Part shown: positions 11,809-43,953 of the stretch, in pieces | Layout of the letters: each line of letters opens with the position of its first letter | Numbering within the stretch: the first letter of the stretch is position 1 | Source of the DNA: an uncultured Alphaproteobacteria bacterium | GTDB lineage: Bacteria; Pseudomonadota; Alphaproteobacteria; UBA8366 | Assembly: GCA_963711215.1 (NCBI GenBank) | Contig: CAVQDH010000002.1 | Span: 1,110,134 to 1,174,133, forward strand | DNA: 64,000 nucleotides | Direction of reading: 5' to 3' | Notes under the pieces: generated by a model | Databases searched by the model: none | What the model was told of the DNA's origin: nothing | The model's input: only the letters and a program-made list of their open reading frames with translations | Made by a program: the position numbers and the translations under genes

Positions 11809-12094
11809 TGCAACCGGTGTGCCAGAGAGACCGTTTTCGACAAAGACGCCCAGCATCGATGGGCAAACGCGAAAATTGTGTAGCTTCTTGAGAGCGGGTC
11901 CGAATCGATACATTTAATAGGCTGTTATATCGAGTAAATATGGCGATCTTTTTGCTGACGGCGCGACGGTCGAGTTTTAACAGATTTACAATTTAAACTG
12001 CTTCAGATCAGGCGCTTACAACTTCAACTACGGTGGTACCGCCTAGGCAATTATTGCCGGCTATCTGGCGCGAATTTGCCCGGCAAAAATTGCC
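11809..12094 (-). promoter_or_regulatory. Sigma-54 promoter for flaG plus upstream palindrome pair
   Basis: Minus strand TGGCACACCGGTTGCA (11824-11809), a perfect TGGCAC-N5-TTGCA. Palindromes GGCAATTATTGCC (12046-12058) and TTGCCCGGCAAAAATTGCC (12076-12094) lie 220-270 bp upstream. Confidence 0.6.
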
Positions 12095-12219
12095 CACTCC
12101 TTCTTCAACGCCGGATCGGCACCGGGTCGAAGTCGTACGGATGGCTGCGATCATTCCGCTGGTGTCGCCCGGCGCAGATTTATTTGGAAGCGCTCGACGC
12201 TTCGCGTAAAGTCGCGCCG

Positions 12220-13047
12220 ATGGCCGACAGTACTTTGAGGCGTGCGTATAACCGTGACGGATACCTCGTCGCACGGAACGTGCTGGAACCGTCGGTGGTG
12301 GAAGGCGTGCTATCGGAATGCCGCGACGTCTTGCGCCTGCAGGCGGAGCGGCACGGAATCGCGGCGGCACCGGAAAGCGGACCGGAATTCGACGCCGCCC
12401 TGGCGGATCTGTTCCGAACATCGATCGGAAGCTATCTGGCCGCGGCCAAATTGACGCAATATCTGCCGTCGCTGCACCGGCTCGGCGCCGATGCTCCGAT
12501 CTTGCATCTCATCCGCTCGCTTGGCATCGACCGGCCGGTGATCTCGACGCGGCCCGTCGTCCACATCGTTTCCGACGATCTCAAGGTTCCCGGCGGCTAT
12601 CATCGGACGCCGCCGCACCAGGATTGGCGCAGCGTTCAGGGCAGCCTCGACGGCTTGGTCGTCTGGCTGCCGCTCGTGCCGGTGGAGGCGCAGAACAATG
12701 CCCTGGAGGTCGTGCCCGGCAGCCATCGCCTGGGGCTCTTGCCCACCGTGCCGCATCCGTTCGGGACGACCGTGACCGATCGCCGGATTGCCGATGACGC
12801 CTTTGTGCCGCTGGGCGCCCAGCCGGGTGACGCGGTGGTCTTCTCGATGTTCCTGGTCCACCGGACGGGATCGGCCACGCGTCCGGGCGTGCGCTGGGCG
12901 GTCAGCTTCCGGTACAACAATCTCGACGAGCCCAGCTTCGTCGCGCGCGACTTCCCCAATCCGTTCATCTACCGGTCGCGCGAGGATCTGCTCGTCGAGG
13001 GATTCCCGACGGCGGAAGAAGTGGATCGCGTCTTCCGTGACGAATGA
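12220..13047 (+). CDS. Phytanoyl-CoA dioxygenase (PhyH) family Fe(II)/2-oxoglutarate oxygenase
   Basis: HxD iron motif (PPHQDW), distal His (FLVHRTG), and RW.VSFRY near the C-terminus. I chose the ATG at 12220 (MADSTLRRAYNRDGY). Confidence 0.75.
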   Translation: MADSTLRRAYNRDGYLVARNVLEPSVVEGVLSECRDVLRLQAERHGIAAAPESGPEFDAALADLFRTSIGSYLAAAKLTQYLPSLHRLGADAPILHLIRSLGIDRPVISTRPVVHIVSDDLKVPGGYHRTPPHQDWRSVQGSLDGLVVWLPLVPVEAQNNALEVVPGSHRLGLLPTVPHPFGTTVTDRRIADDAFVPLGAQPGDAVVFSMFLVHRTGSATRPGVRWAVSFRYNNLDEPSFVARDFPNPFIYRSREDLLVEGFPTAEEVDRVFRDE

Positions 13048-13059
13048 GGGTGTTGCCGC

Positions 13060-13971
13060 CTAGTCCTGTTCCAGAATGGCAAGTCCCATTCCGTCCCGGC
13101 CATAGCCGTTCCCGGTATAGAGCATGTAACGATTGCCGGCGTGATCGAAGACGAAGGGATAGGCGACCAGCTCACTGTCCCACCCGGAATCGGATACGTC
13201 GATCCCCGTCAGCGCGTCCCGTCGCGTCCACGAAAGACCGTCCGGCGATTCCGCATAGCCGATGCGGTAGAGATAATCCGTGCCGCGGTGGCAATACCAC
13301 ATGCGCCACCGGTCCGTGTCGTGGATGACCGAGGGCCGGGCTATCGCGATCTCGGTGGGGCCTTCGGCGCCGATCAAGACCTTCGGATTGGTTTGCCAGA
13401 CGATGCCGTCCGTGCTCGTCGCATGGCGGATGTTGTAGTAGGGCGGCTGCTCGGGTATCGGCCATTCCGTCGCCGAAAAATACCACATGCGCCAGTTTCC
13501 GTCGGAGCCGAGGACGCACGGCGTCGAGACCAGCGTGGGATCCGCGGGGTTGCGGTCCAGCACTGCGTCCGGGCTATACCGCGCATAGGTCTGGCCGCCG
13601 TCACGCGAGATGGCGAGGCCGATGGCGACATGATAGGGATCGGGTCCGTGCTGGGACCAGCCGATGTAATAGAGCCAGCGCTCGTCGCCGCGATGCACCA
13701 GCCACGTCGCGCCGGCGCCGGTATGGTCGAAACGCCCCGGCGCGCCCGGCGCGAGAACGGGCTGCTCGGCAATACGCAGGACGTCCTGCGGTTTCGTGAT
13801 GTCGATGTCGAGCCACCCCGCGTGCGAGCGATTGTTCTCGTTGCGCGTGGTGAACCAGATGCGGACGAGATTGCCGTCAATAGGTTCGGCGAACGGCAAC
13901 AAGCTATGCGACTGCATCCACGGCCGCTGCCCGGCCGCCTTGAAAATGCGGCCCAGCTTGCGCCATCGCAT
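13060..13971 (-). CDS. Beta-propeller protein resembling the GH32/43/62/68 glycosidase clan (function unknown)
   Basis: Repeated W/Y-rich blade motifs (WLYYIGW, WRMWYFS, WRMWYCH, YMLYTGNG). Start ATG overlaps the stop of the upstream acyltransferase (ATGA at 13971-13973). Confidence 0.55.
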   Translation of the reverse strand: MRWRKLGRIFKAAGQRPWMQSHSLLPFAEPIDGNLVRIWFTTRNENNRSHAGWLDIDITKPQDVLRIAEQPVLAPGAPGRFDHTGAGATWLVHRGDERWLYYIGWSQHGPDPYHVAIGLAISRDGGQTYARYSPDAVLDRNPADPTLVSTPCVLGSDGNWRMWYFSATEWPIPEQPPYYNIRHATSTDGIVWQTNPKVLIGAEGPTEIAIARPSVIHDTDRWRMWYCHRGTDYLYRIGYAESPDGLSWTRRDALTGIDVSDSGWDSELVAYPFVFDHAGNRYMLYTGNGYGRDGMGLAILEQD

Positions 13972-14633
13972 CAGAACCCTCGCATCCGGTTGCTCGGCAC
14001 TTTCGATCGTTCCGTCGCCGTCGCCGGATAGACGCCGCCTTCCGCTGCGTCCTGCAGCAGCAAGGCGCCCGCGCCGATCAGGCATCGGGCGCCGATATTG
14101 ATGTTATCCGCCAGCGTCGCATTGACACCGATAAAGCAGTTGTCGCCGACGGTCACCGCGCCGGAAACGACGACATGGCTCGCGATGAATACGTTCGCGC
14201 CGATCGTGGCGTGATGGCCGATATGGTTGCCGCTCCACAGCGTCGTATTTTCGCCAATGGAAACAAAAGGCTGTATGGTGTTGTGCTCAAGCAGGAAGAG
14301 GTTGTCTTTCGGCTCGAATCCGCGCCACACGAAAGCCCGACTCGACACGTAGTGGGCAAAGCGGTAGCCCTTGCGCCGCGCCTCCTGAAACTTCGCCTCG
14401 CGATGCCGGTTCAGCTTGCCGAACGCCATGGCGATGAAGATGTCGCATTGATCCGGGGGAAAGTGGCGCTCCACTTCCTCGAAGGCCACGAGCGGCAGCC
14501 CCATGGCCTGATCGGTTTGCAGAAAATCCGAATCGACGGTGAAGCCGACGACCGAATAGTCGCTATCCTGGACGAAGCAGTAATGCGCGACCTCGGCGAT
14601 CTGGCCCGCACCGAAGATAACCAGCCGTTTCAT
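13971..14633 (-). CDS. NeuD/PglD-family sugar O/N-acyltransferase (left-handed beta-helix)
   Basis: N-terminal Rossmann-like MKRLVIFGAGQIAEV followed by hexapeptide repeats (IGENTTLWSGNHIGHHATIGANVFIASHVVVSGAVTVGDNCFIGVNATL). Confidence 0.8.
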   Translation of the reverse strand: MKRLVIFGAGQIAEVAHYCFVQDSDYSVVGFTVDSDFLQTDQAMGLPLVAFEEVERHFPPDQCDIFIAMAFGKLNRHREAKFQEARRKGYRFAHYVSSRAFVWRGFEPKDNLFLLEHNTIQPFVSIGENTTLWSGNHIGHHATIGANVFIASHVVVSGAVTVGDNCFIGVNATLADNINIGARCLIGAGALLLQDAAEGGVYPATATERSKVPSNRMRGF

Positions 14634-14691
14634 GCGCGGACTATATCAGCGGCTGGCGTGCCCGATAAGTGTCGACGTAAACTGCCGCGCC

Positions 14692-16767
14692 ATGTCGAGC
14701 CCGATCGAAATGTTGCAGGCGGCGCTGAGGTTCCAGCAGCGGGGGGAGCACGCGGCGGCGGCCCGTGTATTGCGCCAGGTGCTGACGATCGATGCGGGAC
14801 ATCCGGATGCCCTGCATCTGCTGGGACTATGCCTGCACGCGCAAGGTGATAGCGCCGAAGCGTTAAAGCAGATTCGCAAGGCGATCGAGGTCAAGCCGTC
14901 GGAGCCGATGTTCCACACCAACGCCGGCGTCGTCGCCGTCGCGATGGGGGACGTCAAGGCCGGCATTACGCATTATAGCCGCGCGCTCGCGCTCGATCCG
15001 GCCTATGTCGACGCTTGCAACAATCTCGGAGTCGCGCTGCAGCGTATGGGGCTTTTCAATGAAGCGGCGACGGCATTCCGCCGGGCCGTCGAGCTTTGCC
15101 CGGACGCGCCGGGCCCGCTCGTCAATCTCGGCAACACCCTGCGGGCGCTCGGCCAACCGGCGGACGCGATCGCGTACTACCGGCGCGCCCTTGCGATTGC
15201 GCCCGATATGGCGGAAGCGCACAACAATCTCGGCAACGCCTTGAAGACGCAGCGGCGCTACGACGACGCCATCGAAAGTTATGACAAGGCGTTGAAACTC
15301 CGGCCCGATTTTTCCGAGGCGCATTTCAACCGCGGGCTCGTTCTTGCGGCTCGCGGCGATCCGGAAGGGGCGGTGGATGCGCTCACGCGGGCGATCGCGA
15401 TCCTCCCGGATCCGCGATATCGCCTCGCGCGGGCCGGCATCCTGCCGGTCATGCCCCGCTCGCTCTCGGATATGGCGGAATGGCGCGAGCGTTTTGCGCA
15501 TGAAATCGCCGCGCTGGCTTCCGAAAAAATCACGGTGCCGGGAACGCCGCTCGAGACACCGGTGATGAATTTCTATCTCGCCTATCACGGTGAGAACGAC
15601 CGCGAGCTCATGGTGCAGCTGTCCCGGCTGTTCCGGCAGGCCTATCCGTCGCTGGAATGGACGGCGCCGCATTGCCAGGACGCAGCATTGCGGGAGCGCG
15701 GGCCGCGCGTCCGTCTTGGGTTTTTCTCCACCTTCCTGTACGACCATGCGGTGGCGTGGAGCATCCGCGGATTTCTCGAAGCGCTGCCGAAGGACCGTTT
15801 CGAGGTCATCCTGTTCACCGTGCGGCAGCCCGAAGGCGACGTTATGCCGGAGATCATGGCCGCGGCAGACAAGGTCATCATGCTGCCGCAGTCGATCGAT
15901 CGGGCACGCGGCCTCATCGCCGAAGCGCGTCTCGATGTCTTGACCTTTGCGGACATCGGGATGGAGAGCTTGAGCTATGCGCTCGCGCATGCGCGATTGG
16001 CGCCGGTGCAATGCGCGACCTGGGGGCATCCGGTGACCACCGGCATCTCGACGGTGGATTATTACATCTCGAGCGATTTCGCCGAGCCGGACGACGCGGC
16101 CGAGCAGTACAGCGAGCGGCTTGTCCGTCTCTCCGGGATCCAATGCACCTACCGCCGGCCTTCCTTCCCGGCCGATCCGAAGCCGCCCGCGCCCGATCTG
16201 CCCGCCGGTGCGACGATCTATCTTTGTCCGCAGAGCCTGTTCAAGATCCATCCGGACATGGACGGGCCGCTGTCGGAAATCCTGCGCCGGGACCCCGCGG
16301 GCGTCATGCTGTTCTTCGAGGGAACGGACAAGGTCATCACCGGCCGCCTGCAGGAACGCTGGCGCGAGACCTTCGCGGATGTGGCCGCGCGCGTACGCTT
16401 CCTGCCGCGCGTGACGGTCGATCGTTTCCTGGAAACCATGGCGTCCGCCGATGTCTTGCTGGACACATGGCCGTTCGGCAGCGGCAACACGAGCTACCAG
16501 GGCTTTGCCGCCGGTATTCCCATCGTGACCTTTCCGGGAAAGTATTTGCGCGGGAGGGGAACGCTGGCGCATTACCGTCACATGGGATTCACCGATTGCG
16601 TCGCGGACACGCCGGAATCCTATGTGGATATTGCCGTCCGCCTCGGCACCGACAGCGAATTTCACCGCCGGATTTCGGCCATGATCCGCGAGCGCTGCCA
16701 CGTGCTGTTCGATGACGAGCGCGTCGGGGCCGACCTCGTGCGGTTCCTCCTGGAGGTGACGGCGTGA
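14692..16767 (+). CDS. TPR + GT41 (O-GlcNAc-transferase/SPINDLY-like) glycosyltransferase, copy A
   Basis: About 8 TPRs, then a catalytic region collinear with eukaryotic OGT (LAPVQCATWGHPVTTGISTVDYYISSDFAEPDDAAEQYSERLVRL; LDTWPFGSGNTSYQGFAAGIPIVTFPG; YVDIAVRLGTDSEF). I chose the start at 14692 (MSSPIEML). Confidence 0.85.
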   Translation: MSSPIEMLQAALRFQQRGEHAAAARVLRQVLTIDAGHPDALHLLGLCLHAQGDSAEALKQIRKAIEVKPSEPMFHTNAGVVAVAMGDVKAGITHYSRALALDPAYVDACNNLGVALQRMGLFNEAATAFRRAVELCPDAPGPLVNLGNTLRALGQPADAIAYYRRALAIAPDMAEAHNNLGNALKTQRRYDDAIESYDKALKLRPDFSEAHFNRGLVLAARGDPEGAVDALTRAIAILPDPRYRLARAGILPVMPRSLSDMAEWRERFAHEIAALASEKITVPGTPLETPVMNFYLAYHGENDRELMVQLSRLFRQAYPSLEWTAPHCQDAALRERGPRVRLGFFSTFLYDHAVAWSIRGFLEALPKDRFEVILFTVRQPEGDVMPEIMAAADKVIMLPQSIDRARGLIAEARLDVLTFADIGMESLSYALAHARLAPVQCATWGHPVTTGISTVDYYISSDFAEPDDAAEQYSERLVRLSGIQCTYRRPSFPADPKPPAPDLPAGATIYLCPQSLFKIHPDMDGPLSEILRRDPAGVMLFFEGTDKVITGRLQERWRETFADVAARVRFLPRVTVDRFLETMASADVLLDTWPFGSGNTSYQGFAAGIPIVTFPGKYLRGRGTLAHYRHMGFTDCVADTPESYVDIAVRLGTDSEFHRRISAMIRERCHVLFDDERVGADLVRFLLEVTA

Positions 16768-18945
16768 GCGAGGTCGGCTTGCTGCTCGCCGAGGCGCAGC
16801 AGCAATTCAAGGCCGGACGAACCGCCGACTCCTATGCGACATGCGGCGAGGTGCTCAAGCGCGATCCGGAAAATTCGGCGGCGCTCGAGCTGATGGGGGT
16901 GCTGGCGAGCCGGCTGGGGGAGATCGAGACCGCCGTGCAGATGCTGGAACGCGCGGCAAAGCAGCGGCCCGGCGAGGCGCGTCTTCTCGCCAATCTCGGC
17001 GCCGTGTACCGGGCGGCCGGGCGGGTCGAGGAGGCGGAGGCGCGCTATCGCGACGCAATCGCCCTCGATCCGGACAGCCGTGCCGGCGCGGTTCAATCTG
17101 GCGAATCTGCTGATGGCACGCGGCGAGTTCGACGCCGCCTTGCGCGAATATGTGGCGATCGTCGAGCGCGATCCATCGAATGCCGGCGCCCTGAACAACA
17201 TGGCGGCAGTCCTCGAGGCCAAGGGCCGTTTCGAAGAGGCGGAAAGCGTTTATCGCGCGCTTCTTGATGCCAATCCGGAGGATGCCGGCGCGTCCAACAA
17301 CCTCGGCGCACTGCTCCGGGACATGGGGCGCATGCCGGAAGCGATCATGCATTACCGGCGAGCGATTGCTCTCGACCCGAAGGCAGTCGAGCCGCGCAAC
17401 AATCTGGGCGTGGCGCTGCTCGACACCGGCGATTTCGAAGCCGCGGTCGACTGTATTCGCGACGCCTTGGCGCTTGGCGGCGACGTCGCCGCGGTCCATG
17501 AAAATCTCGGCAACGCGCTGCGCAAGCTCGGAGAGACGGACGAAGCGGCTCGGGCTTACGAAAAGGCGCTGGCGCTCGGCAACGCGGCCGGCGTGCGCTT
17601 CAAGCTGGCGACACTGCTTCCGGCCGTGGCCGGTTCGACCGACGAGCTCGATCGCTGGCGGCGGCGGATGGCCAAGGCCGTGGATGCGCTCGCCGACGCG
17701 GGCTTCTCACTGCGCGATCCGTATGCGGAAGTGGGGGTCACTACCTTCAACCTGTCCTATCACGATACGAACAACCGCGACCTGCAGGCCTCGCTTGCGC
17801 AGGCCTATCTCCGTGCCTGCCCGACGTTGGCTTTTACGGCGCCGCATTGCGCGGCACCACGGCCATCAGGCGCGGCGCCGCTCAAGGTCGGATTCATTTC
17901 GCGCCAGTTCGCGAACAATGCCGTCGGCTGGTGCTTTCACGGCGTGCTGCGCCACATGCCGCGCGACGATATTTCGGTGACGGCCCTGCGGTTCGGCGAG
18001 TTGGACGATCCCTTGTGGCGGCGCATCGCCGCCGACGTGGACGCGGCGGTGGTCCTGCCGGCGTCGCTGGCGTTTGCGCGCGCGCGCATCGCCGAGCTGG
18101 AATTGGACGTGCTCGTCTATACGGATATCGGCATGGAGCCGCTCACCTACTTCCTCGCCTTCGCGCGGCTCGCTCCGTTGCAGTGCGTGCTGGGCGGTCA
18201 CCCCGATACGCTCGGCATTCCGGCGATCGATCTCTTCATCAGCAGCGACCTGCAGGAGCCGGCCGACGCGGAGGAGCATTACAGCGAAAAACTCATTCGC
18301 TTGCCGGGGGCGCCGACCTATTACGACCGCCCGGAGGTGCCCGCGCCGCTCAAGCCGCGCGCGGCGTTCGGCCTGCCCGAGGAAGGGGCGATCTATTTCT
18401 GCGCCCAGACGCTGATCAAGATCCATCCCGAGATGGACGCGCTCTTTGCCGGCATTCTTGCGGGCGATCCGGAGGGGCTGCTTGTCCTGCCGGCGGGCTA
18501 CAATCCGCGGCTGGCCGAGCGTCTCAAGGCGCGCTTCGCACGAAGCTTGGGGCCTTTGGCGGAGCGGGTCCGCTTCTTGCCGGCGATGAGCCATCTCGAT
18601 TTCATGAACGTCATGGCGCTGGCCGATGTTTCGCTCGATACCCGGCCGTTCGGCGGCGGCAACACGAGCTGGCAGGCGATCGCCGCGGGCACGCCCATCG
18701 TGACGTGGCCGGGCCGGTTCCTGCGCGGCCGCTACACGCAAGCGCTTTATCGCCTGGCCGGCGCGGAAGACACCATTGTCGGCAGCGCCGGGGCCTATGT
18801 CGCGATGGCGCTGCGGCTGGCGCAAGATCGCGATTTCCGGTCCGCCGTGCAGGCCCGGATCGCCGCCGGGGCCGGACGTATCTTCGCCGACAGGACGCAT
18901 GTCGCGGCTTTGCGCGATACGTTCATCCGATACGCCAAGTCTTAG
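16764..18945 (+). pseudogene. TPR + GT41 (OGT-like) glycosyltransferase, copy B, one frame break (possible artefact)
   Basis: ORFs 16764-17267 and 17080-18945 join as ...AIALDPDS|VPARFNLANLL once a C is removed from the CC run at 17077-17078. Length is 3n+1. GT41 motifs (LQCVLGGHPDTLGIPAIDLFISSDLQEPADAEEHYSEKLIRLPG; LDTRPFGGGNTSWQAIAAGTPIVTWPG). GTG start overlaps the copy A stop (GTGA). Confidence 0.8.
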
Positions 18946-19592
18946 ATCTGCGAGCGAATATCGCCGGCGATGATTTCGGCGGGCTCGGTCAATATGCGGT
19001 GCAGGATGCTCCACCGGGAGCCACGCCATTCCGGCAGGAAGCGAAGCTCTATGCCGTGGTGGCCGAACGCCGCGGCATCGTAGAGCGTCCGACCGCCCTC
19101 GAGGTTGACGTAGCGGGTGGCGCCCAGCGCCCGCGCGGCCGCCAGCACGCGGTCTTGCCCATGCAGCGACGGATCGAGGCCGAGCGTGCTGGTGCGGACT
19201 GTCTCAAACGGCAGGTCCAGCGTCCGGCAACAAAAGCCGAGCAGCTTCTCCAGATAGTCGCAGACCGTTCCGTCAAGGCGAAGCATCGCGTCGCAAAGCG
19301 GATGCCGGAAGCTTTGCAGCACCGGGAAGCGCCGAGACGAAGCCTGAAGCCGTTCCAGGGCATCGTCCGCGAACCGCAGGTCGCTGATGCGCGCGTCGAC
19401 CGCCGCCCGCTGCAGCGGCAGGGTAAGCCAGGCGGGGTCTCCCGCGGCGTTGGGCAGGCGGTTGCGATGCACCCATCCGCGGCGCGGGAATTGCACGCAA
19501 TCGAAGAGGGCGACGCGATCGGCGGCTGCGAAAAGCCGGAAATATCCAGCATAGGGCAGGAAATACGGTTGCATCACCGCGACGGTCGTCAT
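18942..19592 (-). CDS. WbqC-family protein (sugar-modification locus protein)
   Basis: N-terminal MQPYFLPYAGYFRL motif typical of the WbqC family; 216 aa. Confidence 0.75.
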   Translation of the reverse strand: MTTVAVMQPYFLPYAGYFRLFAAADRVALFDCVQFPRRGWVHRNRLPNAAGDPAWLTLPLQRAAVDARISDLRFADDALERLQASSRRFPVLQSFRHPLCDAMLRLDGTVCDYLEKLLGFCCRTLDLPFETVRTSTLGLDPSLHGQDRVLAAARALGATRYVNLEGGRTLYDAAAFGHHGIELRFLPEWRGSRWSILHRILTEPAEIIAGDIRSQI

Positions 19593-19691
19593 GCCGGAAG
19601 CCTACCAATTCCAGGAGAGGAAAACGAAGATTCCATCGCGTAAAGCTGCGGTCAAATCCCGTCTTCATATTGCCCGCGCATCCGGGTATTG

Positions 19692-21459
19692 ATGCGGTCG
19701 ATGTCAGGGGCCTTGCAAGACACGTTGCGGCGCGCGCTTGCGCTGCGGGAAGCGGGAAAGACGCACGAGGCGGAAGCCCTGTGCGACGCGGTCCTCACGC
19801 TCGACCCCGAGAATGCGGACGGATGGCAGATTGTCGGCCTCGTCCGTCTCGACCAGGGCATGAACGCCGCCGCCCGCGATGCGCTGGCGAAGGCCGCTGC
19901 CCTCGCGCCCGAGATAGCCGGCAATCACGTCAATTTGGCGACGGCGCTGCAACGGCTGGGGAAGCCGGAGCAGGCGATCCGGAGTCTCGATCGGGCGATC
20001 GCCTTGCAGGATGATTTGCCGGAGGCGCATTACAATCTCGGCAACGTGCTGTTGCAGGCCGGCCGTCCGGCGGAAGCCGAAGCCGCGTTCGAGCGGGCGG
20101 CGATGCTGCGTCCCGGCTATGCGGAAGCGCTCAACAATCTGGGCCTTCGGGCCAAGGAACGCGGCGACGCGGAAGCGGCAATCGATTATTTCCGGCGGGC
20201 GCGGGATGCCGCGCCCGGCTACGCGCCGGCATGGTCCAATCTTTGCGGTGTGCTCCTGGACCGCGGCCGAACGGTCGAGGCTATCGAAGCCGGGCGGCGT
20301 GCCGTGCTTCTGTCTCCGGGCAGCGCCGAAGGCGCATTACAATCTCGGCAATGCGTTCGCCGCCGCGCCGATCCCGGCCGAAGCCGCGGCCTGCTATCGC
20401 CGGGCGCTGCAGGCCGATCCCGCGTATGCCGATGCGTTCGTCAATCTGGGGGTTGCGCTGATGCATCTGGGCGTGTGCGACGAGGCAATCGCCGCGCTGG
20501 ATCATGCGCTCGTTCTCGATCCCGACCTGGCCGAAGCGAACTGGAACAAGGCGCTCGCGCTGCTGCTGTCGGGCCGGCTCGGTGAAGCCTGGGATCTGTA
20601 TGAATGGCGCTGGCGGGCCGTGAAGGATCTGACCTGGCCGAGGATCGACCGGCCGTTGTGGGACGGCGGTGACGGGGCCGGGCGTACGCTGCTGATCCGT
20701 TGCGAGCAGGGCTACGGCGATGCCATCCAGTTCGCCCGCTATCTGCCGCTGGTGCGCCAGCGGAACTGGCGTGTCGTGGTCGAATGTCCGCCGAAGCTGG
20801 AGCGCCTGTTCCGGGCGAGCGGGCTCGCCGATACGGTAATCCCCTTCGGCGCCGAGCGGCCGGCCTTCGACAGCTGGCTGCCGATCATGAGCCTGCCGCG
20901 CGCCTTCGGGACGGAGATCGCCTCAATTCCACAGACATGTCCTTATCTGCAGGCACAGCCCGCGGCGGCAGCGCGGAGCGGCGACCGCCGAACGAAGGTT
21001 GGGATCGTCTGGCAAGGAAGTCTGAGCAACGATCGAGGTCGGTTCAGGTCTTGCGCGCTGGCGGATTTGGCGCCGTTGCGGAACATATCCGGCATATCGC
21101 TTTATAGCCTGCAGGCGCAGCTGTTGGGTGAAGAGCGCGACCGGCTCCGCGCGTTCTCGATTCCCGACCTGGAGACCGGACTGACCGATTTCGCGGAGAC
21201 CGCGGTTGTCCTTCAATCGCTCGATCTGGTGATCACGGTCGACACGGCGATGGCGCACCTCGCCGGCGCCTTGGGCCGTCCCGTCTGGGTGCTGCTGTCG
21301 GCCTTTCCGGATTGGCGATGGCTGCTCGACCGGGACGATAGTCCGTGGTATCCGACCATGCGCTTGTTTCGTCAGCGGCGCATCGGCGATTGGGCGTCGG
21401 TCGTGGATGACGTGGCTTCCGCTCTCGCCGACGATTGCGCGGGAAGGGGTGTTCGATGA
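19692..21459 (+). pseudogene. TPR + GT9-like (heptosyltransferase-fold) protein, copy A, one frame break (possible artefact)
   Basis: ORFs 19689-20585 and 20011-21459 join as SPGSAE|AHYNLGNAF once a G is removed at 20331-20332. Length is 3n+1. C-domain motifs: GYGDAIQFARYLPLV, VGIVWQG, LVITVDTAMAHLAGALGRPVWVLL, WYPTMRLFRQ. Confidence 0.75.
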
Positions 21460-21505
21460 TGCGTTGGCATGCAACGGCATTGCCTGAAAGGGGCGGCGGC
21501 TGACG

Positions 21506-22606
21506 ATGGCGGCACCGGCAATCCCCGTGATGGCGCCCCGGCTGCCCGATGCCGCGGCCCTCATGCCCTATCTCGAGGAAATCGACGTAAACCGCTGGTA
21601 CAGCAATTTCGGGCCGCTGTTGCGGCGGTTCGAGGCGCGGCTGGCGGACCATTTCGACCTGCCCAAGGACGGCGTGGCCTGCGTCGGCAATTGCACGGTG
21701 GGGCTGATGCTCGCCCTCATGGCGGTTGCGCGGGAGCGCGGCGGCTACTGCATCATGCCGTCCTTCACCTTCGTGGCATCGGCCCATGCCGTGCTGGCGG
21801 CCGGCCTCATTCCGCTGTTCATCGACGTGGATTCGCAGTCCTGGACGGTGACCCCGGCGAGCGTGACCGAGGCCGTTCGGTCGGCCGACCGGCCGGTGGC
21901 CGCTGCGCTGGTCGTGTCGCCTTTCGGCGCGCCGGTCGACGTTGCCGCGTGGGACGAATTTGCCGCGCACAGCGGCATCCCCGTCGTGATTGATGCGGCG
22001 GCGGGATTCGATGGCGCAAACGCCGGGAAAGCGCCCCTCGTCATCAGCTTCCACGCGACCAAGGTGATGGGGACGGGCGAGGGAGGGGCCGTACTGAGCC
22101 GCGACGCGGCGGTGATCCGATCGATCGCCGCAGCCTCGAATTTCGGTTTCCACGACAGCCGCGAGGCGAAGGTGGCCGGATTCAACGGCAAGCTCAGCGA
22201 GTACAGCGCCGCAGTCGGCCTTGCGTCATTGGATGCCTGGCCGGCAACGCGCAGGATGTTGGCGCAGCTCACCCGGCTCTACGCCGATGCCTTGAACGGG
22301 ATCGGCAATATCAGCCTGTCGCCGGCCTTCGGCGCCGGCTGGGTCAGCTCGACATGCAACATCGCCTTCGACCGCCCGGTCGTGGAGGCGGTCATGGGCG
22401 CGCTCGCCGACGCCGGGATCGATTCGCGGCAGTGGTGGAGCAAGGGCTGCCACCGGGAGCCTGCGTTTGCCGGCTTTCCCCATCGCGACCTTTTCGTCAC
22501 CGACGATCTCGGCCGGCGCGTTCTCGGCCTGCCGTTCCACGAAGCGCTCAGCGAGCAGGATATCGAGCGCGTCGTCGCCATCGCCGCGTCCGCGGCGCAA
22601 CGATAG
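21506..22606 (+). CDS. DegT/DnrJ/EryC1/StrS-family PLP-dependent sugar aminotransferase
   Basis: 366 aa. Family-typical N-terminus and a putative PLP-lysine context (ISFHATKVMGTGEGG). Confidence 0.85.
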   Translation: MAAPAIPVMAPRLPDAAALMPYLEEIDVNRWYSNFGPLLRRFEARLADHFDLPKDGVACVGNCTVGLMLALMAVARERGGYCIMPSFTFVASAHAVLAAGLIPLFIDVDSQSWTVTPASVTEAVRSADRPVAAALVVSPFGAPVDVAAWDEFAAHSGIPVVIDAAAGFDGANAGKAPLVISFHATKVMGTGEGGAVLSRDAAVIRSIAAASNFGFHDSREAKVAGFNGKLSEYSAAVGLASLDAWPATRRMLAQLTRLYADALNGIGNISLSPAFGAGWVSSTCNIAFDRPVVEAVMGALADAGIDSRQWWSKGCHREPAFAGFPHRDLFVTDDLGRRVLGLPFHEALSEQDIERVVAIAASAAQR

Positions 22607-22880: not shown

Positions 22881-23712
22881 ATGGCTACTCCAAAGATCAA
22901 CCTGAGCGCAGGTGTACGAGCCAATCTGCTCACGCTGCAGAACACGACCAAACTGATCAGCACGGTGCAGACCCGGCTGTCCACCGGACTCAAGGTCAAT
23001 TCGGCCATCGACGATGCGAACGCGTATTTTACCGCGAAGGCGCTCAACAATCGTTCGGACGACCTGAACGCACTGAAATCGAATATCGATCTGTCCATCA
23101 GTGCCCTTCAGGGAGCGATCCATGGCATCGAGTTCGATCACCGATCTGGTCCAGCAGGCAAAGGGCCTGGTCAACACGGCGAAGGCGACGGGCGATACCG
23201 CCGAGCGTTCGCTGCTCGCCGTCCAGTTCAACGCGCTGTTGGTGCAGATCGACAACCTGGCGAACGACGCCAACTTCAACGGCTCGAACCTCATCAGGTC
23301 GACACCCGATAACCTTCAGGTCGACTTCAACGAGGACAGCACCAGCAGCATCACCATCACCGGCCTCGACTCGACGACGGCATCGACGGGCCTGGACATC
23401 ACCGAGGCGGGCAACAATTTTTCCAGCCTCACGGATATCAATTTCTCGATCACGCAGCTGAACAGCGCGCTGACCGAGCTGCGCACCAATGCCTCGACCC
23501 TCGGCTCCAACAATACCGTGCTGCAGACGCGCCTTGACTTCACCGCCAACCTGTCGACGACGCTGACGGAAGGCGCCGGCAAGCTGACCCTGGCGGATCT
23601 CAACGAGGAAAGCGCCAACCTGCTGGCCTTGCAGACCCGGCAGCAGCTTGGCCTGAACTCGCTTGCGCTGGCCGCGCAGAGCGAGCGGCAGATCCTGAGC
23701 CTGTTCGGTTAA
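22881..23712 (+). pseudogene. Flagellin 1, one frame break (possible artefact)
   Basis: ORFs 22881-23312 and 23101-23712 align end to end with flagellin 2. Removing one T from the TT run at 23133-23134 gives AIHGIESITDLVQQ versus AINGINSITELVQQ in the paralogue. Length is 3n+1. Confidence 0.85.
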
Positions 23713-24047: not shown

Positions 24048-24875
24048 ATGGCTGATAAAATTGCACTATCAGCAGGCGTGCGGTCTAACCTTCTTAGTCT
24101 GCAGGTCACCACCGCCAGCATCAACACGACGCAGCAGCGCCTGTCGACGGGCCTCAAGGTCAATTCGGCCCTCGATAACGCGAGTGCGTACTTTACGTCG
24201 GTTGCGTTGAGCAATCGGTCGTCGGACCTGGGTGCGCTCAAGTCCGATATCGACCTGTCGGTCAGCGCGATCGAATCGGCGATCAACGGTATCAACTCGA
24301 TCACCGAGCTGGTGCAGCAGGCCAAAGGTCTTGCAAACCAAGCGAAGGCGACCGGCGATACGAGTGAAAAGTCGACCCTGGCGACGCAGTTCAATTCGCT
24401 GCTCGACCAGATCGACGCCGTCGCCAATGACGCCAGCTTCAACGGCACGAACCTGATCCAGGCGACGCCGGACAATCTGACGGTCAACTTCAACGAAGAC
24501 AACACCAGTAACCTGACGATCACTGGTCTCGACTCGACGACGGCCACTACCGGCCTTTCGATTGGTGTGGCGACCAATGCCTTTGCGGATAGCGCTTCGG
24601 TCGACTTGGCGTTGACGTCGCTCAACAGTGCGCTCACGACGCTGCGTACCAACGCGGCGACGCTGGGTTCCAACAGCTCGGTTCTTCAGACTCGTCTGAC
24701 CTTCACGTCGAATCAGGTGAATACCCTCGACACGGGCTCAGGCAAGCTGACGCTGGCGGACCTGAACGAGGAGAGCGCCAACCTGCTGGCTCTGCAGACG
24801 AGACAGCAGCTCGGCATCAACTCCTTGTCTCTGGCTTCGCGAAGCGAGCGGTCGATCCTGGCCCTCTTCGGTTAA
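24048..24875 (+). CDS. Flagellin 2 (short alphaproteobacterial type, 275 aa)
   Basis: Conserved flagellin N-terminus (LSAGVRSNLLSLQ...RLSTGLKVNSALDNAS) and C-terminus (ADLNEESANLLALQTRQQLGINSLSLASRSERSILALFG). GGGAGA RBS. Confidence 0.95.
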   Translation: MADKIALSAGVRSNLLSLQVTTASINTTQQRLSTGLKVNSALDNASAYFTSVALSNRSSDLGALKSDIDLSVSAIESAINGINSITELVQQAKGLANQAKATGDTSEKSTLATQFNSLLDQIDAVANDASFNGTNLIQATPDNLTVNFNEDNTSNLTITGLDSTTATTGLSIGVATNAFADSASVDLALTSLNSALTTLRTNAATLGSNSSVLQTRLTFTSNQVNTLDTGSGKLTLADLNEESANLLALQTRQQLGINSLSLASRSERSILALFG

Positions 24876-25073: not shown

Positions 25074-25466
25074 ATGCCGCTAAAGATCGTGTTGAAACCG
25101 GGGGAGAAGGTCGTCATCAATCAGGCGGTTCTTCAAAACGGACGCGAGAAGACAGAGATAATCGTACAAAATAAAGCAAGCATTCTCCGAGAGCGGGATA
25201 TAATGGTCGAAAAGGAGGCCAATAGTCCGGCGAAACGGATTTATTTTATTGTTCAGATGATTTATATGTTTCCGAATAAGGAACGTGAATACCAGGAAAA
25301 ATTCCATAAATTCACCAAGGAATTCGTGAATGCTGTGCCGAGTTCTCTGCCTTTGATAATGGATATCGGAAAGCAGATCATCGCAGGCAATGTCTATGGG
25401 GCGCTGAAGCTGTGCCGGAAGCTGGTTAAGTATGAGGACGAGGTTCTAAAACATGCAACAAGGTAA
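25074..25466 (+). CDS. flbT: Flagellin synthesis repressor FlbT
   Basis: MPLKIVLKPGEKVVINQAVLQNGREKTEIIVQNKASILRERDIM matches the FlbT family N-terminus. The gene is markedly AT-rich. Confidence 0.85.
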   Translation: MPLKIVLKPGEKVVINQAVLQNGREKTEIIVQNKASILRERDIMVEKEANSPAKRIYFIVQMIYMFPNKEREYQEKFHKFTKEFVNAVPSSLPLIMDIGKQIIAGNVYGALKLCRKLVKYEDEVLKHATR

Positions 25467-25896
25467 CAAGAGCCAAGCATATCGTTCATCGCAGCGGCTG
25501 GGTTCGAACGCTCGGGATACGGAAGCACAGGCCCTGTTGGAGGCTGCGCGGAAGCTGGACGCGGTGGTCGGTGGCGACGACCAGGATGCCTATCGCACGG
25601 CGTTGCGGCAGAACTGGCGCCTTTGGACGATCATTCAGGCGGATGTCTCCGGCGAAGATTCACCGCTGCCCGATGAGATTCGTCAGAATATCCTTAGCCT
25701 GAGCGTCTTTATCGATAAGCATACGGTCAGTGCCCTCGCGGAGCCGAGCGGGCGAAAGCTCCGGGTGCTGATCGACATCAACCGTCATATCGCCGGCGGC
25801 TTGATGGCTAATTTCAATGCGCAAGCCGACGTTTCGGCGGAACCGGCGCAACCCGCGCCCGCCCGCCCGCGCGTGGATGGTGATATCATCGCCTGA
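25453..25896 (+). CDS. flaF: Flagellin synthesis regulator FlaF
   Basis: FlaF-family motifs (EAQALLEAARKL, ALRQNWRLWTIIQADV, NILSLSVFIDKHT). Overlaps the flbT end by 14 nt. Confidence 0.85.
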   Translation: MQQGNKSQAYRSSQRLGSNARDTEAQALLEAARKLDAVVGGDDQDAYRTALRQNWRLWTIIQADVSGEDSPLPDEIRQNILSLSVFIDKHTVSALAEPSGRKLRVLIDINRHIAGGLMANFNAQADVSAEPAQPAPARPRVDGDIIA

Positions 25897-25958: not shown

Positions 25959-28016
25959 TCAGCGCTTCGGTTGGAAAGCACGTCGCAGCTCATCCGCGAT
26001 ACGCCGGGTGACGGAAAGCCAATCACCCGGAGAATCCTGCCTGAATAGCCGCATCGTCGGATACCAGGGGCTATCCTCGCGGTCGAGCAGGTAGCGCCAG
26101 TCCGCCGCGAATCCCAGCATCACCCAGACCGGCCGTCCGAGCGCTCCGGCGAGATGGGCCGCGGCCGTGTCGACACTGATGACAAGATCCAGCTTCTCCA
26201 CGACCGCCGCCGTATCGCCGAAATCCGCCAGCCGCGGCCCCAGATCGGTGATGCGCGATTTCTCCATGGGCGGCGCATCTTTCGCCAGCCCGTAGAAGCG
26301 CACATTTTCCAATTCGAGGAGCGGCACCAGGGCGTCAGGCGGGCACGACCGCATATGGTCGTCCTGTCGCTGCGGGTTGCCGGACCAGACAAGCCCGACC
26401 GAGGGCCCGTCGCCGGAAGGAAAGTCCGCCCAGGCCACGGACTTCGACGGCGGCGCCGAGAGATAGGGCACGCGGGCCGGAATACTGTCCAGCGTCGTAT
26501 TGAAGATGCGCGGGAAGCTGAGCAGCGGCACATGATAGTCGGCGGCCGGGGCCGCTTCGTCGCGGGAGATGATGCGCAGGGCATGCCGGGCATCCCGTGC
26601 CGGGAGCGTCGCCATCAGCGCCGCCAACGAAGGCTGGCACTCGAATACCACCCGTGCCCCGGTTGCGGCGAGAAGCGGGATGTAGCGGCAGAAGTGAAGG
26701 CTGTCGCCGAAACCCTGCTCTGCGTGGACGAGGATCGTCGTCGGCCGGTCGCCGCTTGATGCGTCGCCGCTTGATGCGTCGCCGAGGGGCTCGCCGTTCC
26801 ACAGCGGCGCGCCGAAGTCCGGACGCCACGCGGGCGCCATGTCCGTGCTCCACCGTGCCTCGTAGTTGGCCCACCCGTTCGCGAAGTCGCCGACAAGAAG
26901 CTGAGCGATGCCGAGGCTCATGCGCAGGTCCGGCCGCTCCGGCCGCAGCGCCAGCGCCTTTTCATAGACCGCGATGGCCTCCTGCGGCTTGTTGAGGTTG
27001 AGCAGGATGAGGGCAAGATTACCGTAGCTCATGAAATCCAGGGGCCGCTGATCAATCACGGCGCGGTAGTGCACCGCGGCCTCCTCGAGACGGCCCGTTC
27101 CGCGCAGCAAATTTGCAAGGCTGCGTTGCGCGTCAGAAAATTTATCATTTATTTTCAAAGCATTACGGAAGGCGATCTCGGCCTCGGCCGGCGCGCCGGC
27201 GGCATGAAGGGCGACACCGAGGTTGTGCAGGGTCGTGAGGTTTTTCGGCTCGATTTGCAGCGCGGCTTTCAGTTGCCGGACGGCTTCCACATTCCGTCCG
27301 AGGCTGCAAAGCGCCGCGCCCAGATTGTTCAGTGCGCTTACCGATCGAGGGTCATGGCGCAAGACGTGCCGGCATTGCTCGACGGCCGCTTCCTGATCGC
27401 CCTGTTTCCGGAGAATGGCGGCGAGGTTGAGCCGTGCCTGGTGGAGGAGCGGGTCGGCGGCCAGCGCGTCGCGGTATCGCTCGGCGGCTTCCTCGATCCG
27501 TCCTTCGCAATGCAGCGCATAGCCATAGGCCGCGAGGAGCTTCGCATCGCCGGGCGAGCGCTGCAATGCCGACTGGAAAAGCGGTATCGCTTCGCCGTGA
27601 CGGCCCAGTCGGGAGAGGCACTGCGCCAATTCCGATGGCCAGCGTGCATTGTGGGGATCGAGCTCGGCGGCGCGTTGCCATGGTTCAAGAGCATCCGCAT
27701 CGCGGCCGAGCCGTGACAATGCCTCGGCAAGCGCCGCGCAATAGGCCGCATTTTCTTTCTCGCAGGCCACCGCGCGGATGAAACAATCCACGGCGTCGAC
27801 CGGCCGGCCCGCCGCAAACGCGTTCAAGCCGCGAAGATGCCACGCCCGTCCGTCGTCTGGCCGCTGCTCGACGACTTGGCGCAATATGAGCTCCGCACGG
27901 TCATGCTGCCCGGCCTCATAGGCGTGCGCCGCCTGCTGAAGAAATTTGCCCGCCGATCCGGTATGGGCGCCCGCCGGGGTATTGCGGGAGCCCGGTGCGG
28001 CGGGTTTTTGAACCAT
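25959..28016 (-). CDS. TPR + GT9-like (heptosyltransferase-fold) protein, copy B
   Basis: TPR array plus the same C-domain as copy A (GFGDSLHFCRYIPLL, VGLVWSGN, LVISVDTAAAHLAGALGRPVWVML, WYPTMRLFRQ). Only 27-48 nt downstream of flgL, so probably co-transcribed. I chose the start at the ATG at 28016 (GGACGG RBS). Confidence 0.8.
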   Translation of the reverse strand: MVQKPAAPGSRNTPAGAHTGSAGKFLQQAAHAYEAGQHDRAELILRQVVEQRPDDGRAWHLRGLNAFAAGRPVDAVDCFIRAVACEKENAAYCAALAEALSRLGRDADALEPWQRAAELDPHNARWPSELAQCLSRLGRHGEAIPLFQSALQRSPGDAKLLAAYGYALHCEGRIEEAAERYRDALAADPLLHQARLNLAAILRKQGDQEAAVEQCRHVLRHDPRSVSALNNLGAALCSLGRNVEAVRQLKAALQIEPKNLTTLHNLGVALHAAGAPAEAEIAFRNALKINDKFSDAQRSLANLLRGTGRLEEAAVHYRAVIDQRPLDFMSYGNLALILLNLNKPQEAIAVYEKALALRPERPDLRMSLGIAQLLVGDFANGWANYEARWSTDMAPAWRPDFGAPLWNGEPLGDASSGDASSGDRPTTILVHAEQGFGDSLHFCRYIPLLAATGARVVFECQPSLAALMATLPARDARHALRIISRDEAAPAADYHVPLLSFPRIFNTTLDSIPARVPYLSAPPSKSVAWADFPSGDGPSVGLVWSGNPQRQDDHMRSCPPDALVPLLELENVRFYGLAKDAPPMEKSRITDLGPRLADFGDTAAVVEKLDLVISVDTAAAHLAGALGRPVWVMLGFAADWRYLLDREDSPWYPTMRLFRQDSPGDWLSVTRRIADELRRAFQPKR
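26749..26785. repeat. 15-bp tandem duplication inside TPR-GT9-like copy B
   Basis: GTCGCCGCTTGATGC x2 plus a partial third copy; encodes GDASSGDASSGD on the minus strand. Confidence 0.9.
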
Positions 28017-28064
28017 ATTTCCGTCCTGCGGACGCAACGGCCCGGACTCGCGCCTGTGACGACG

Positions 28065-33143: not shown

Positions 33144-33287
33144 AGCGAACGCCGTGCCAAAGCAGGGTCATAAGGTGAAATAATAAATCATTGATATATA
33201 ATGTGAAAATACCATATCGGCCGGGCAGGAGCGCGGTGCGCGGGGCCGCTTCGGCAAGCGCTGCCGGGCGCACCGGCAAAGATTTCC
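33144..33287 (-). promoter_or_regulatory. Sigma-54 promoter module for the flgI operon (shared with the divergent fliX)
   Basis: Minus strand TGGCACGGCGTTCGCT (33159-33144). IHF consensus TATCAATGATTTA (33197-33185). Palindromes GGCAAGCGCTGCC (33253-33265) and GGCAAAGATTTCC (33275-33287), centres 22 bp apart. Confidence 0.55.
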
Positions 33288-43246: not shown

Positions 43247-43953
43247 GCATGCGGCGTCTTCAGGATCTCAAGAAGCAACAGAGCCCGGACGCCTGGCTCG
43301 TGACCTTCGCCGATATTTCCGCGCTCATGCTGGCATTCTTCGTCATGCTCTTCTCCATGTCGTCGCTCAGGCTCGACAAATGGCAGGCGGTGGTATCGCG
43401 CATGACCAAGGGAGAGCCGGCGCAGGTGCAGCTGCGGCCAAAGCCGATTTCCGAATACAGCGTGCCGACCGTCGATATTCCGCCCGCGCTGCCGCTCGGC
43501 TATCTGTCGCAGGTGCTGGATGAAAAGCTCAAGCCGCAGGTGGACGCCGGCCAGGTGATCATCCAGCGGCTCGACAAGATGCTGGTCGTCTCGCTGCCCT
43601 CGGACGTGCTTTTCCTGCCGGACAAGGCGACGCTGACGCCGCGCGCGAGCCAGGCCTTGTTCGGCGTCAGCAGCGCGCTCGCCCAGATCGGCAATCAGGT
43701 CGACGTCGAGGGGCATACCGCGCCCGCCGCCTCCCCGAAGACCGGGATCGAGTGGAAATGGCGGTTGTCCCTCGAGCGCGCGGCGGCTGTCGCCGACGAG
43801 CTGAAGCGGATCGGCTACCAAGGCAATCCGGCCATTCTGGGCCTGGCGGATTCGCGCTTCGGGTTTCTCGACAAGGCAATCCCGGAAGCCAAGCGGCTCG
43901 TGCTCGCGCGGCGCGTCGATCTCGTGATCCATCCGACGGAAGGTGAGCCGTGA
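43243..43953 (+). CDS. motB: Flagellar stator protein MotB
   Basis: WLVTFADISALMLAFFVML holds the proton-channel Asp. OmpA-like domain with VEGHT...WRLSLERAAAVADEL. GTGA overlap with the upstream paralogue. Confidence 0.85.
   Translation: MSMRRLQDLKKQQSPDAWLVTFADISALMLAFFVMLFSMSSLRLDKWQAVVSRMTKGEPAQVQLRPKPISEYSVPTVDIPPALPLGYLSQVLDEKLKPQVDAGQVIIQRLDKMLVVSLPSDVLFLPDKATLTPRASQALFGVSSALAQIGNQVDVEGHTAPAASPKTGIEWKWRLSLERAAAVADELKRIGYQGNPAILGLADSRFGFLDKAIPEAKRLVLARRVDLVIHPTEGEP

Follow-up and report, generated by a model that had tools for sequence, protein, structure and literature searches.

Two adjacent TPR-GT41 genes

We analysed a 64,000-nucleotide stretch of DNA from an uncultured Alphaproteobacteria bacterium (contig CAVQDH010000002.1; hereafter the window, with positions counted from its first base). 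The window is a flagellar supercluster, and a sugar island within it holds two adjacent genes, here called GT41a and GT41b. Each encodes an array of tetratricopeptide repeats (TPRs) followed by a catalytic domain of glycosyltransferase family 41 (GT41). The parts of the pair are these.

14692-16767, forward strand: GT41a, an intact 691-aa TPR-GT41 glycosyltransferase (single open reading frame [ORF], PF13844, TPR families)
14713-15435, forward strand: TPR array of GT41a, seven repeats and a capping helix (AlphaFold2 helices, TPR Pfam matches)
15709-16767, forward strand: GT-B catalytic region of GT41a (AlphaFold2 lobes, alignment to human OGT and TtOGT)
16764-18945, forward strand: GT41b, a TPR-GT41 paralogue of 726 aa once its frame is repaired (PF13844, intact orthologue P0122)
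17857-18945, forward strand: catalytic region of GT41b (alignment)

The longest ORF covering GT41a begins at 14632. The ATG at 14692, which the original prediction took as the start, lines up with the start codons of the orthologues and gives the 691-aa product. GT41b starts at the GTG within a GTGA at 16764-16767, overlapping the stop codon of GT41a, with a GGAGG 7 nt upstream. This overlap had also been noted in the original prediction; it is kept, at 4-8 nt, in five relatives, and the two genes are translationally coupled.

Both proteins matched the Pfam family PF13844 (Glyco_transf_41), for which the curated cut-off is 25 bits: GT41a at 73.6 bits (E 1.3e-20), GT41b at 72.2 bits (E 3.5e-20) and the intact orthologue P0122 at 72.0 bits. 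TPR families matched many times within the first 260 residues of GT41a, and its C-terminal part is Glyco_transf_41; GT41b has the same layout of a TPR array followed by the GT41 domain. When the catalytic half of GT41a was searched against the sequences of the PDB with phmmer, GT41 enzymes and nothing else were returned: Thermobaculum OGT (E 3.7e-26), human OGT (E 1e-23), Arabidopsis SPINDLY (E 9e-19), Xanthomonas XcOGT (E 2e-18) and HMW1C/NGT (E 1e-10 to 1e-11). The motif strings on which the original prediction had based a likeness to OGT and SPINDLY are present in GT41a (16099-16131, 16459-16500 and 16627-16662) and in GT41b (18271-18303 and 18634-18675), and the human OGT strings set beside them appear in the PDB-search alignment. 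By sequence, the resemblance of the pair to OGT-type enzymes lies far beyond chance. The membership of both proteins in GT41 is solid, and for GT41a it is borne out by fold as well.

An AlphaFold2 model of GT41a, built on 50 homologues, reached a pLDDT of 93.9 and a pTM of 0.89. It consists of 14 paired helices from H2 to H231 and a capping helix (H235-242; residues numbered as in the annotated product of 685 aa), then a pair of long transition helices and a catalytic part of two Rossmann-like lobes, and an Asn recurs at a spacing of 34 residues in the TPR array. In a Foldseek search against the PDB, the whole chain of the model aligned to SPINDLY (E 1e-32, TM 0.73) and also to human OGT; matches to XcOGT (2vsn, 2jlb) and TtOGT (5djs) had E-values of 1e-24 and 7e-27. 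The modelled GT41a thus has a GT-B fold continuous with an N-terminal TPR superhelix. The same architecture is predicted for GT41b from its alignment to GT41a, which spans 660 residues at 38% identity (E 2e-136). GT41b is offset by 34 residues relative to GT41a, which corresponds to one additional N-terminal TPR. Both proteins lack a signal peptide and a membrane segment, given that their TPR helices set in at residue 2.

The relatives compared throughout are five contigs (L002, L003, L005, L006 and L007), whose GT41a homologues are 58, 57, 53, 48 and 43% identical to GT41a. Between L002 and L003, which are fairly close to each other, dN/dS was 0.12 for GT41a and 0.09 for GT41b (for comparison, 0.03 for FlgE and 0.17 for DegT). 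Judging by these ratios, both paralogues are under purifying selection and look functional.

A conserved sugar island between flagellar genes

The original prediction had placed the pair in a flagellar locus, and the window bears this out: it holds a large flagellar cluster, with two flagellin genes 4-5 kb downstream of the pair. Genes for a sigma-54 activator, MotA, FliG, FliF, FlgE, FlgD, FliK and a FlaG-like protein lie before the island; after it come the two flagellins, FlbT, FlaF, FlgL, FlgK, FlgI, FlgH, FlgA, FlgG/F, FliM, MotB, FliP, FliR and FlhB. The island itself (12076-22606), between flaG/fliK and the flagellin, FlbT and FlaF genes, has the gene layout of a flagellin glycosylation island.

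In all five relatives we found the same order of genes: FlaG, the PhyH-like dioxygenase, a protein of no recognised family, an acyltransferase on the opposite strand, GT41a, GT41b, a convergent WbqC-family gene and DegT, followed by two flagellins, FlbT, FlaF and another TPR-transferase. The PhyH counterpart in L007 is an unannotated gene of matching size. With L010, a second contig of the same metagenome (99.04% identical to the window over 15.9 kb), the island order is shared by six related contigs at 43-99% identity. At 40-42% identity, the homologues of GT41a are longer (742-805 aa) and adjoin pyruvate phosphate dikinase and riboflavin genes, not flagellar genes. With 4,874 matches at E<=1e-10 among 8,000 candidates scored, the family of TPR-GT41 proteins is very large, and because homologues at 40-42% identity lie in non-flagellar contexts, the flagellar association defines a subfamily within it.

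The other genes of the island and those immediately following it are listed here.

12076-13047, forward strand (longest ORF; orthologue match 12430-13044): PhyH-family Fe(II)/2-oxoglutarate dioxygenase (PF05721, E 5e-17)
13063-13971, reverse strand: conserved 303-aa protein without a Pfam family (present in all five relatives)
13974-14633, reverse strand: left-handed beta-helix sugar N-acyltransferase, PglD/NeuD-like (Hexapep, E 1.6e-18)
18942-19592, reverse strand: WbqC-family protein (PF08889, E 1.6e-34; syntenic in all relatives)
19773-21459, forward strand: FlmG-like TPR-glycosyltransferase 1 (frameshifted by an extra A at 20330; intact, 585 aa, in L010)
21506-22606, forward strand: DegT/DnrJ/EryC1 sugar aminotransferase, pyridoxal phosphate-dependent (PF01041, E 1.5e-64)
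22881-23712, forward strand: flagellin 1, about 276 aa (an extra T at 23134 breaks the frame; L010 has an intact copy)
24048-24875, forward strand: flagellin 2, 275 aa, its central region rich in Ser/Thr (Flagellin_N, Flagellin_C)
25074-25896, forward strand: FlbT and FlaF, regulators of flagellin synthesis (PF07378, E 2e-42; PF07309, E 5e-30)
25959-28037, reverse strand: FlmG-like TPR-glycosyltransferase 2, 692 aa, past FlaF (FlmG alignment, Glyco_transf_9)

The PhyH-like gene is syntenic in L002, L003, L005 and L006 (68% identity by tblastn). The 303-aa protein is 59% identical to its L002 orthologue and is translationally coupled to the acyltransferase. It had no Pfam match; weak leads below threshold were a beta-1,2-mannobiose phosphorylase model and, for the L006 orthologue, a faint GH43-related match. 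It could be a glycan-processing enzyme of the island that has so far escaped recognition. The acyltransferase, syntenic in all relatives, matched PglD_N at E 5.7e-4, under the Pfam cut-off, and is transcribed divergently from GT41a across 58 bp. Short blocks within this intergenic stretch (14634-14691), such as GGTGA.T.TAAC and GATAA...GTA(A/G)AC, are also conserved in L002, L003 and L005 and may be a shared regulatory site. At the other end of the pair, the 3' ends of the convergent GT41b and WbqC genes overlap by 4 nt (18942-18945), leaving no space for a terminator, and this junction is tight or overlapping in the relatives too. The best NCBIfam match of the DegT gene is of the DesI type, at 181 bits, far under the cut-off of 650. 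Pfam scans of the island found no flippase, polymerase or lipid-carrier transferase.

Some content of the island varies. In four of the five relatives, flaG and the PhyH-like gene are separated by a gene for an S-adenosylmethionine-dependent methyltransferase (L002 6801-7520, compared with 11844-12430 of the window). The window has no counterpart of this gene by tblastn, so the glycan made here may lack a methyl group. The first FlmG-like gene is likewise present in four of the five. In L006 (19597-22070) no FlmG-like gene lies between WbqC and DegT, and a 613-aa protein with a GT41 match is encoded past FlaF, followed by a TPR protein. From this gene content, the set of TPR-transferases varies around a constant GT41a/GT41b core. 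Elsewhere in the flagellar cluster, a 1,182-aa protein encoded after MotB (43950-47498, forward strand) had a weak TPR match and an AMIN-like match below threshold.

The original prediction likened the pair to Caulobacter FlmG. We recovered flmG from a Caulobacter vibrioides genome by means of a published cloning primer; the encoded protein has 596 aa, as published (PMC7591256). The parallel holds for architecture: like the pair, FlmG is soluble, carries its TPR array at the N-terminus and a GT-B domain at the C-terminus, and is encoded alongside flagellar genes; flagellin is bound by its TPR domain (PMC7591256; bioRxiv 10.1101/2022.03.25.485807). It does not extend to the catalytic domain. 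By BLASTP the TPR region alone of FlmG aligned to GT41a and GT41b (E 8e-14 and 5e-14), a similarity that is generic for TPR proteins. The catalytic half gave no alignment with either, and FlmG had no GT41 match in Pfam. Since the similarity is limited to the TPR region, we rejected a common family for FlmG and the pair; the analogy is one of design, not of family. FlmG also differs in using a CMP-pseudaminic or CMP-legionaminic acid donor. Among the ORFs scanned across the 64 kb there was no pathway for such a donor (nonulosonate synthase, CMP-transferase), which could be encoded elsewhere in the genome.

The relatives of FlmG in the locus are two other genes. FlmG aligned to FlmG-like protein 1 at 28% identity over 394 columns, through the glycosyltransferase domain (E 5e-28), and to FlmG-like protein 2 at 26% identity over 607 columns including that domain (E 7e-25). 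Both had weak matches to Glyco_transf_9 (E 1.9e-6 and 2.2e-5, respectively). The locus therefore encodes four TPR-transferases, a GT41-type pair and a FlmG-type pair. The Viollier laboratory divided the soluble flagellin transferases into two classes, Maf and FlmG, and a 2023 preprint confines FlmG to Caulobacterales. By RecA the window organism falls among uncultured Alphaproteobacteria, its nearest named relatives belong to Rhodospirillales (85-88% identity), and FlmG-like genes thus occur outside Caulobacterales, contrary to the placement in that preprint.

The frame of GT41b and the two active sites

The original prediction described GT41a and GT41b as a coupled tandem pair. GT41a is indeed a single ORF, but the prediction overlooked that GT41b is out of frame in the window.

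17076, forward strand: extra A that shifts the GT41b frame at codon 105, after the third TPR (DNA alignment to contig L004)

The ORF that begins at the GTGA overlap ends after 167 codons (16764-17267), and the +1 frame (17080-18945) is the one that encodes the GT41 domain. The source annotation of GT41b consists of a 621-aa product alone, and its cluster-mate P0122 is intact at 726 aa. We aligned the window with L004, the contig that encodes P0122. Around 17076 the two aligned sequences read GGAC-GCCGTG and GGACAGCCGTG. The extra A is the sole insertion or deletion in 4,052 aligned bases of 99.06% identity. Between the repaired GT41b of the window and the gene of L004 there are 20 synonymous and 10 non-synonymous differences (dN/dS 0.17).

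Similar interruptions occur across the window. FlmG-like gene 1 and flagellin 1, which the window splits at 20330 and 23134, are both intact in L010, and further insertions relative to the 99%-identical contigs were found at 33242, 33458 and 34375. All six single-base differences in length from L004 or L010 are insertions on the window side. The genes for FliR (about 51860) and an FAD-binding enzyme (about 57500 and 57850) are split across frames in the window, and the FliX gene is split as well. Because at least nine one-base insertions in 64 kb, across unrelated genes, look like consensus errors, pseudogene calls in this contig need caution. Contigs of 99% identity carry intact copies and insertions in unrelated genes fall always on the window side; we infer from this that the frameshift is a sequencing or assembly artefact and that GT41b is a functional gene of 726 aa. 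On the same grounds we rejected a real pseudogene as the leading reading of GT41b, and we dropped programmed frameshifting at 17076, as the orthologues read through this site without a shift. FlmG-like gene 2 carries a change of another kind: relative to L010 it contains a 15-nt in-frame tandem duplication (CGCCGCTTGATGCGT, 26752-26766), which, unlike the one-base insertions, looks like genuine strain variation.

The active sites were compared in an alignment that combined six sequences of a-type and seven of b-type with fragments of human OGT and of the Thermobaculum enzyme. In human OGT we take K842 to stabilise the leaving-group diphosphate, H558 (H218 of XcOGT) to lie on the acceptor side, and K898, H901, R904 and D925 to hold the uridine. 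The K842 position is occupied by Lys518 in GT41a (16243-16245) and Lys552 in GT41b (18418-18420). This Lys is present in all aligned a-type and b-type sequences and is invariant among the 50 homologues. At the H558 position GT41a has His352 (15745-15747), which is His in every a-type orthologue and at least 90% conserved among the 50 homologues. GT41b has Asn385 there (17917-17919), and Asn is found in the b-type orthologues of five of the six lineages. The exception is L005, whose b gene carries an a-type signature throughout. This second GT41 gene of L005 (12073-14355, 760 aa) is a-type at all scored active-site positions, including the His, a pattern that hints at gene conversion or a recent duplication of the a-type gene. 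GT41b retains the catalytic Lys and the LDT..GGNT phosphate-loop motif.

The donor side of the pocket is less like that of human OGT. In the pair, the positions of K898, H901, R904 and D925 are occupied by V (a-type) or H (b-type), F, T or V, and Q, respectively, and GGNT stands in place of the human phosphate loop GHTT. Because the presumed uridine contacts are replaced, UDP-GlcNAc cannot be assumed to be the donor. These substitutions make it less likely that the pair are O-GlcNAc transferases; they do not weaken the case for an OGT-like action on a protein acceptor. The UDP-HexNAc donor of the original prediction thus lost ground, the more so as the neighbouring genes encode an aminotransferase and a PglD-like N-acyltransferase. 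The presence of the DegT aminotransferase, the PglD-like acyltransferase, WbqC and the dioxygenase suggests that the donor is probably an N-acylated amino-deoxyhexose rather than GlcNAc.

Flagellin as the candidate substrate

By analogy with known TPR-guided transferases, we believe that GT41a and GT41b are probably, though far from certainly, cytoplasmic O-glycosyltransferases with flagellin as their substrate. Flagellin is the most economical substrate because the position of the pair in the flagellar locus is conserved in every relative examined down to 43% identity. The cytoplasmic TPR plus GT-B design of the proteins and the precedent of TPR binding by FlmG and Maf-1 give the reading further support: the TPR domains of both bind flagellin directly (PMC7591256; bioRxiv 10.1101/2023.12.03.569772).

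GT41 enzymes are inverting protein glycosyltransferases. In the mechanism that we propose, the acceptors would be the two flagellins of roughly 275 aa encoded downstream. The TPR arm would capture flagellin before export, as in FlmG and Maf-1, and present Ser/Thr residues of its central region to the OGT-type active site, which would transfer the sugar with inversion. The sugar itself would be an N-acylated amino-deoxyhexose tailored by DegT, the PglD-like acyltransferase, WbqC and the PhyH-like dioxygenase. The paralogues would be non-redundant, acting on different sites or different flagellins, or with one priming and the other extending; the His/Asn difference and the extra TPR of GT41b suggest such a division of work. 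The two FlmG-like enzymes might add a further sugar. More tentatively, and with clearly less confidence than in flagellin as the substrate, we suggest that the pair forms a further class of dedicated flagellin O-glycosyltransferase beside the FlmG-type enzymes, with an N-acylated amino-deoxyhexose donor and with GT41b serving a second step or acceptor.

Several observations weigh against flagellin glycosylation by the pair. The link to flagellin comes from conserved position and analogy. The two FlmG homologues could explain flagellin glycosylation by themselves, and since they share the locus, the GT41 pair is not the sole candidate flagellin transferase. L006 lacks the first FlmG-like gene and has a further GT41 gene, so the transferase complement varies among relatives. 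The pair does not keep the residues that contact uridine in human OGT. GT41b does not have the His of GT41a and the reference enzymes and could be weakly active or inactive, and its frameshift could be a genuine recent mutation of the strain. Finally, none of the ORFs scanned across the 64 kb encodes a dehydratase, nucleotidyltransferase or nonulosonate synthase.

The presence of four TPR-glycosyltransferases of two families in one locus also raises the possibility that the pair elongates or branches a glycan primed by the FlmG-like enzymes, or that only one of the paralogues touches protein while its partner works on the sugar. The conserved Asn of GT41b at the acceptor-side His position would fit such a role, and the translational coupling of the pair suits sequential steps. 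However, a long TPR array is a protein-recognition device and is kept under purifying selection in both paralogues, and L006 has the pair without the first FlmG-like gene; we therefore consider glycan extension unlikely, though deserving of attention. Another reading concerns GT41b, which might be a non-catalytic partner (dimerising with GT41a or supplying a second TPR arm) or a gene decaying in this strain. The change from His to Asn at the H558 position in five of six lineages and the frameshift in the window are what speak for it. Against this, the catalytic Lys and LDT..GGNT are kept, dN/dS is 0.09 over the whole gene, and the frameshift is one of many insertions in the window, with an intact copy in a 99%-identical contig. 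A non-catalytic or decaying GT41b thus seems quite improbable.

Proteins other than flagellin might be the target, such as hook, junction, cap, FlaG-like or unrelated cytoplasmic proteins, with the flagellar location reflecting co-regulation only. The size of the TPR-GT41 family and the non-flagellar contexts of the close outgroups are compatible with this, and the known targets of bacterial GT41 enzymes include pilin and adhesins (PMC9306852, PMC3012730). But the subfamily is tied to the stretch of flagellins, FlbT and FlaF in every relative examined, and the flanking sugar-tailoring genes are typical of flagellin glycosylation islands (PMC4875605), and we rate another substrate as improbable. 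Least credible to us, and very improbable, is that the island makes a surface polysaccharide (O-antigen or capsule) instead of a protein glycan. DegT, hexapeptide acyltransferase and WbqC genes are indeed typical of O-antigen clusters, in the case of WbqC according to the Pfam description of PF08889. Yet no Wzx/Wzy, ABC exporter, initiating phosphoglycosyltransferase or ligase was found in or near the island, which is fixed between fliK/flaG and the flagellins in all relatives, and GT41 enzymes act on protein.

Glycosylation of flagellin by the pair would have partial parallels in several known systems. Eukaryotic OGT and plant SPINDLY (PDB 3pe3, 7y4i, 8dtf) share with the pair a TPR superhelix continuous with GT-B, matched over the full length (TM up to 0.73), the Lys at the K842 position, the His at the H558 position in GT41a, and the motifs AEQYSE.L, LDT and DIAV.LGTD. 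By comparison, the pair has a shorter TPR array of 7-8 repeats and, unlike animal OGT, no intervening domain; K898, H901, R904 and D925 are replaced and GHTT has become GGNT. The likely substrate of the pair is also a dedicated one, whereas that of OGT is proteome-wide. XcOGT and TtOGT belong to the same family and have the same architecture, at about 20-24% identity to the pair. We know of no natural protein substrate established for either; for the pair, in contrast, one is suggested by the conserved genomic setting. HMW1C/NGT (3q3e, 8j30) is a GT41 enzyme with an adhesin substrate, NGT making an N-linkage. It is not known to have canonical TPRs. The Ogt of Synechococcus elongatus, which acts on the pilin PilA, is a bacterial GT41 with a defined surface-appendage substrate (PMC9306852). 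Maf-1 of Shewanella resembles the pair in joining a flagellin-binding TPR region to a transferase domain and in acting in the cytoplasm before export (bioRxiv 10.1101/2023.12.03.569772); Maf differs in its GT-A (MAF_flag10) catalytic domain, C-terminal TPR and nonulosonic acid donors.

The closest precedent for the genomic setting comes from De Maayer and Cowan (2016), who described eleven distinct GT41/COG3914 enzymes in the flagellin islands of 198 enterobacterial strains (PMC4875605). As here, these enzymes are encoded beside flagellin genes, with DegT-type aminotransferases, acyltransferases and methyltransferases, and their predicted target is flagellin. They come from Gammaproteobacteria, most are fused to methyltransferase domains, and TPRs are not mentioned. 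That work was bioinformatic only; it predicted a GlcNAc-type modification and considered a wider specificity possible (PMC4875605). Islands for flagellin glycosylation are well known, and both flagellin transferases guided by TPRs and the occurrence of GT41 genes in these islands were on record already; the present locus is not a new principle. In the literature, with most subscription journals outside the search, no flagellin transferase with both a TPR array and a GT41 domain turned up as characterised.

Bacterial TPR-OGT homologues are very numerous, and almost none has a known substrate. A subfamily locked to one island makes the substrate question simple to pose. Two GT41-type and two FlmG-type transferases with only two flagellins constitute a compact natural system for studying how specificity is shared among TPR/GT-B enzymes. 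If flagellin is indeed their substrate, GT41a and GT41b would give the TPR-type bacterial OGT homologues a natural substrate, and the locus would provide a four-enzyme system for acceptor and donor specificity.

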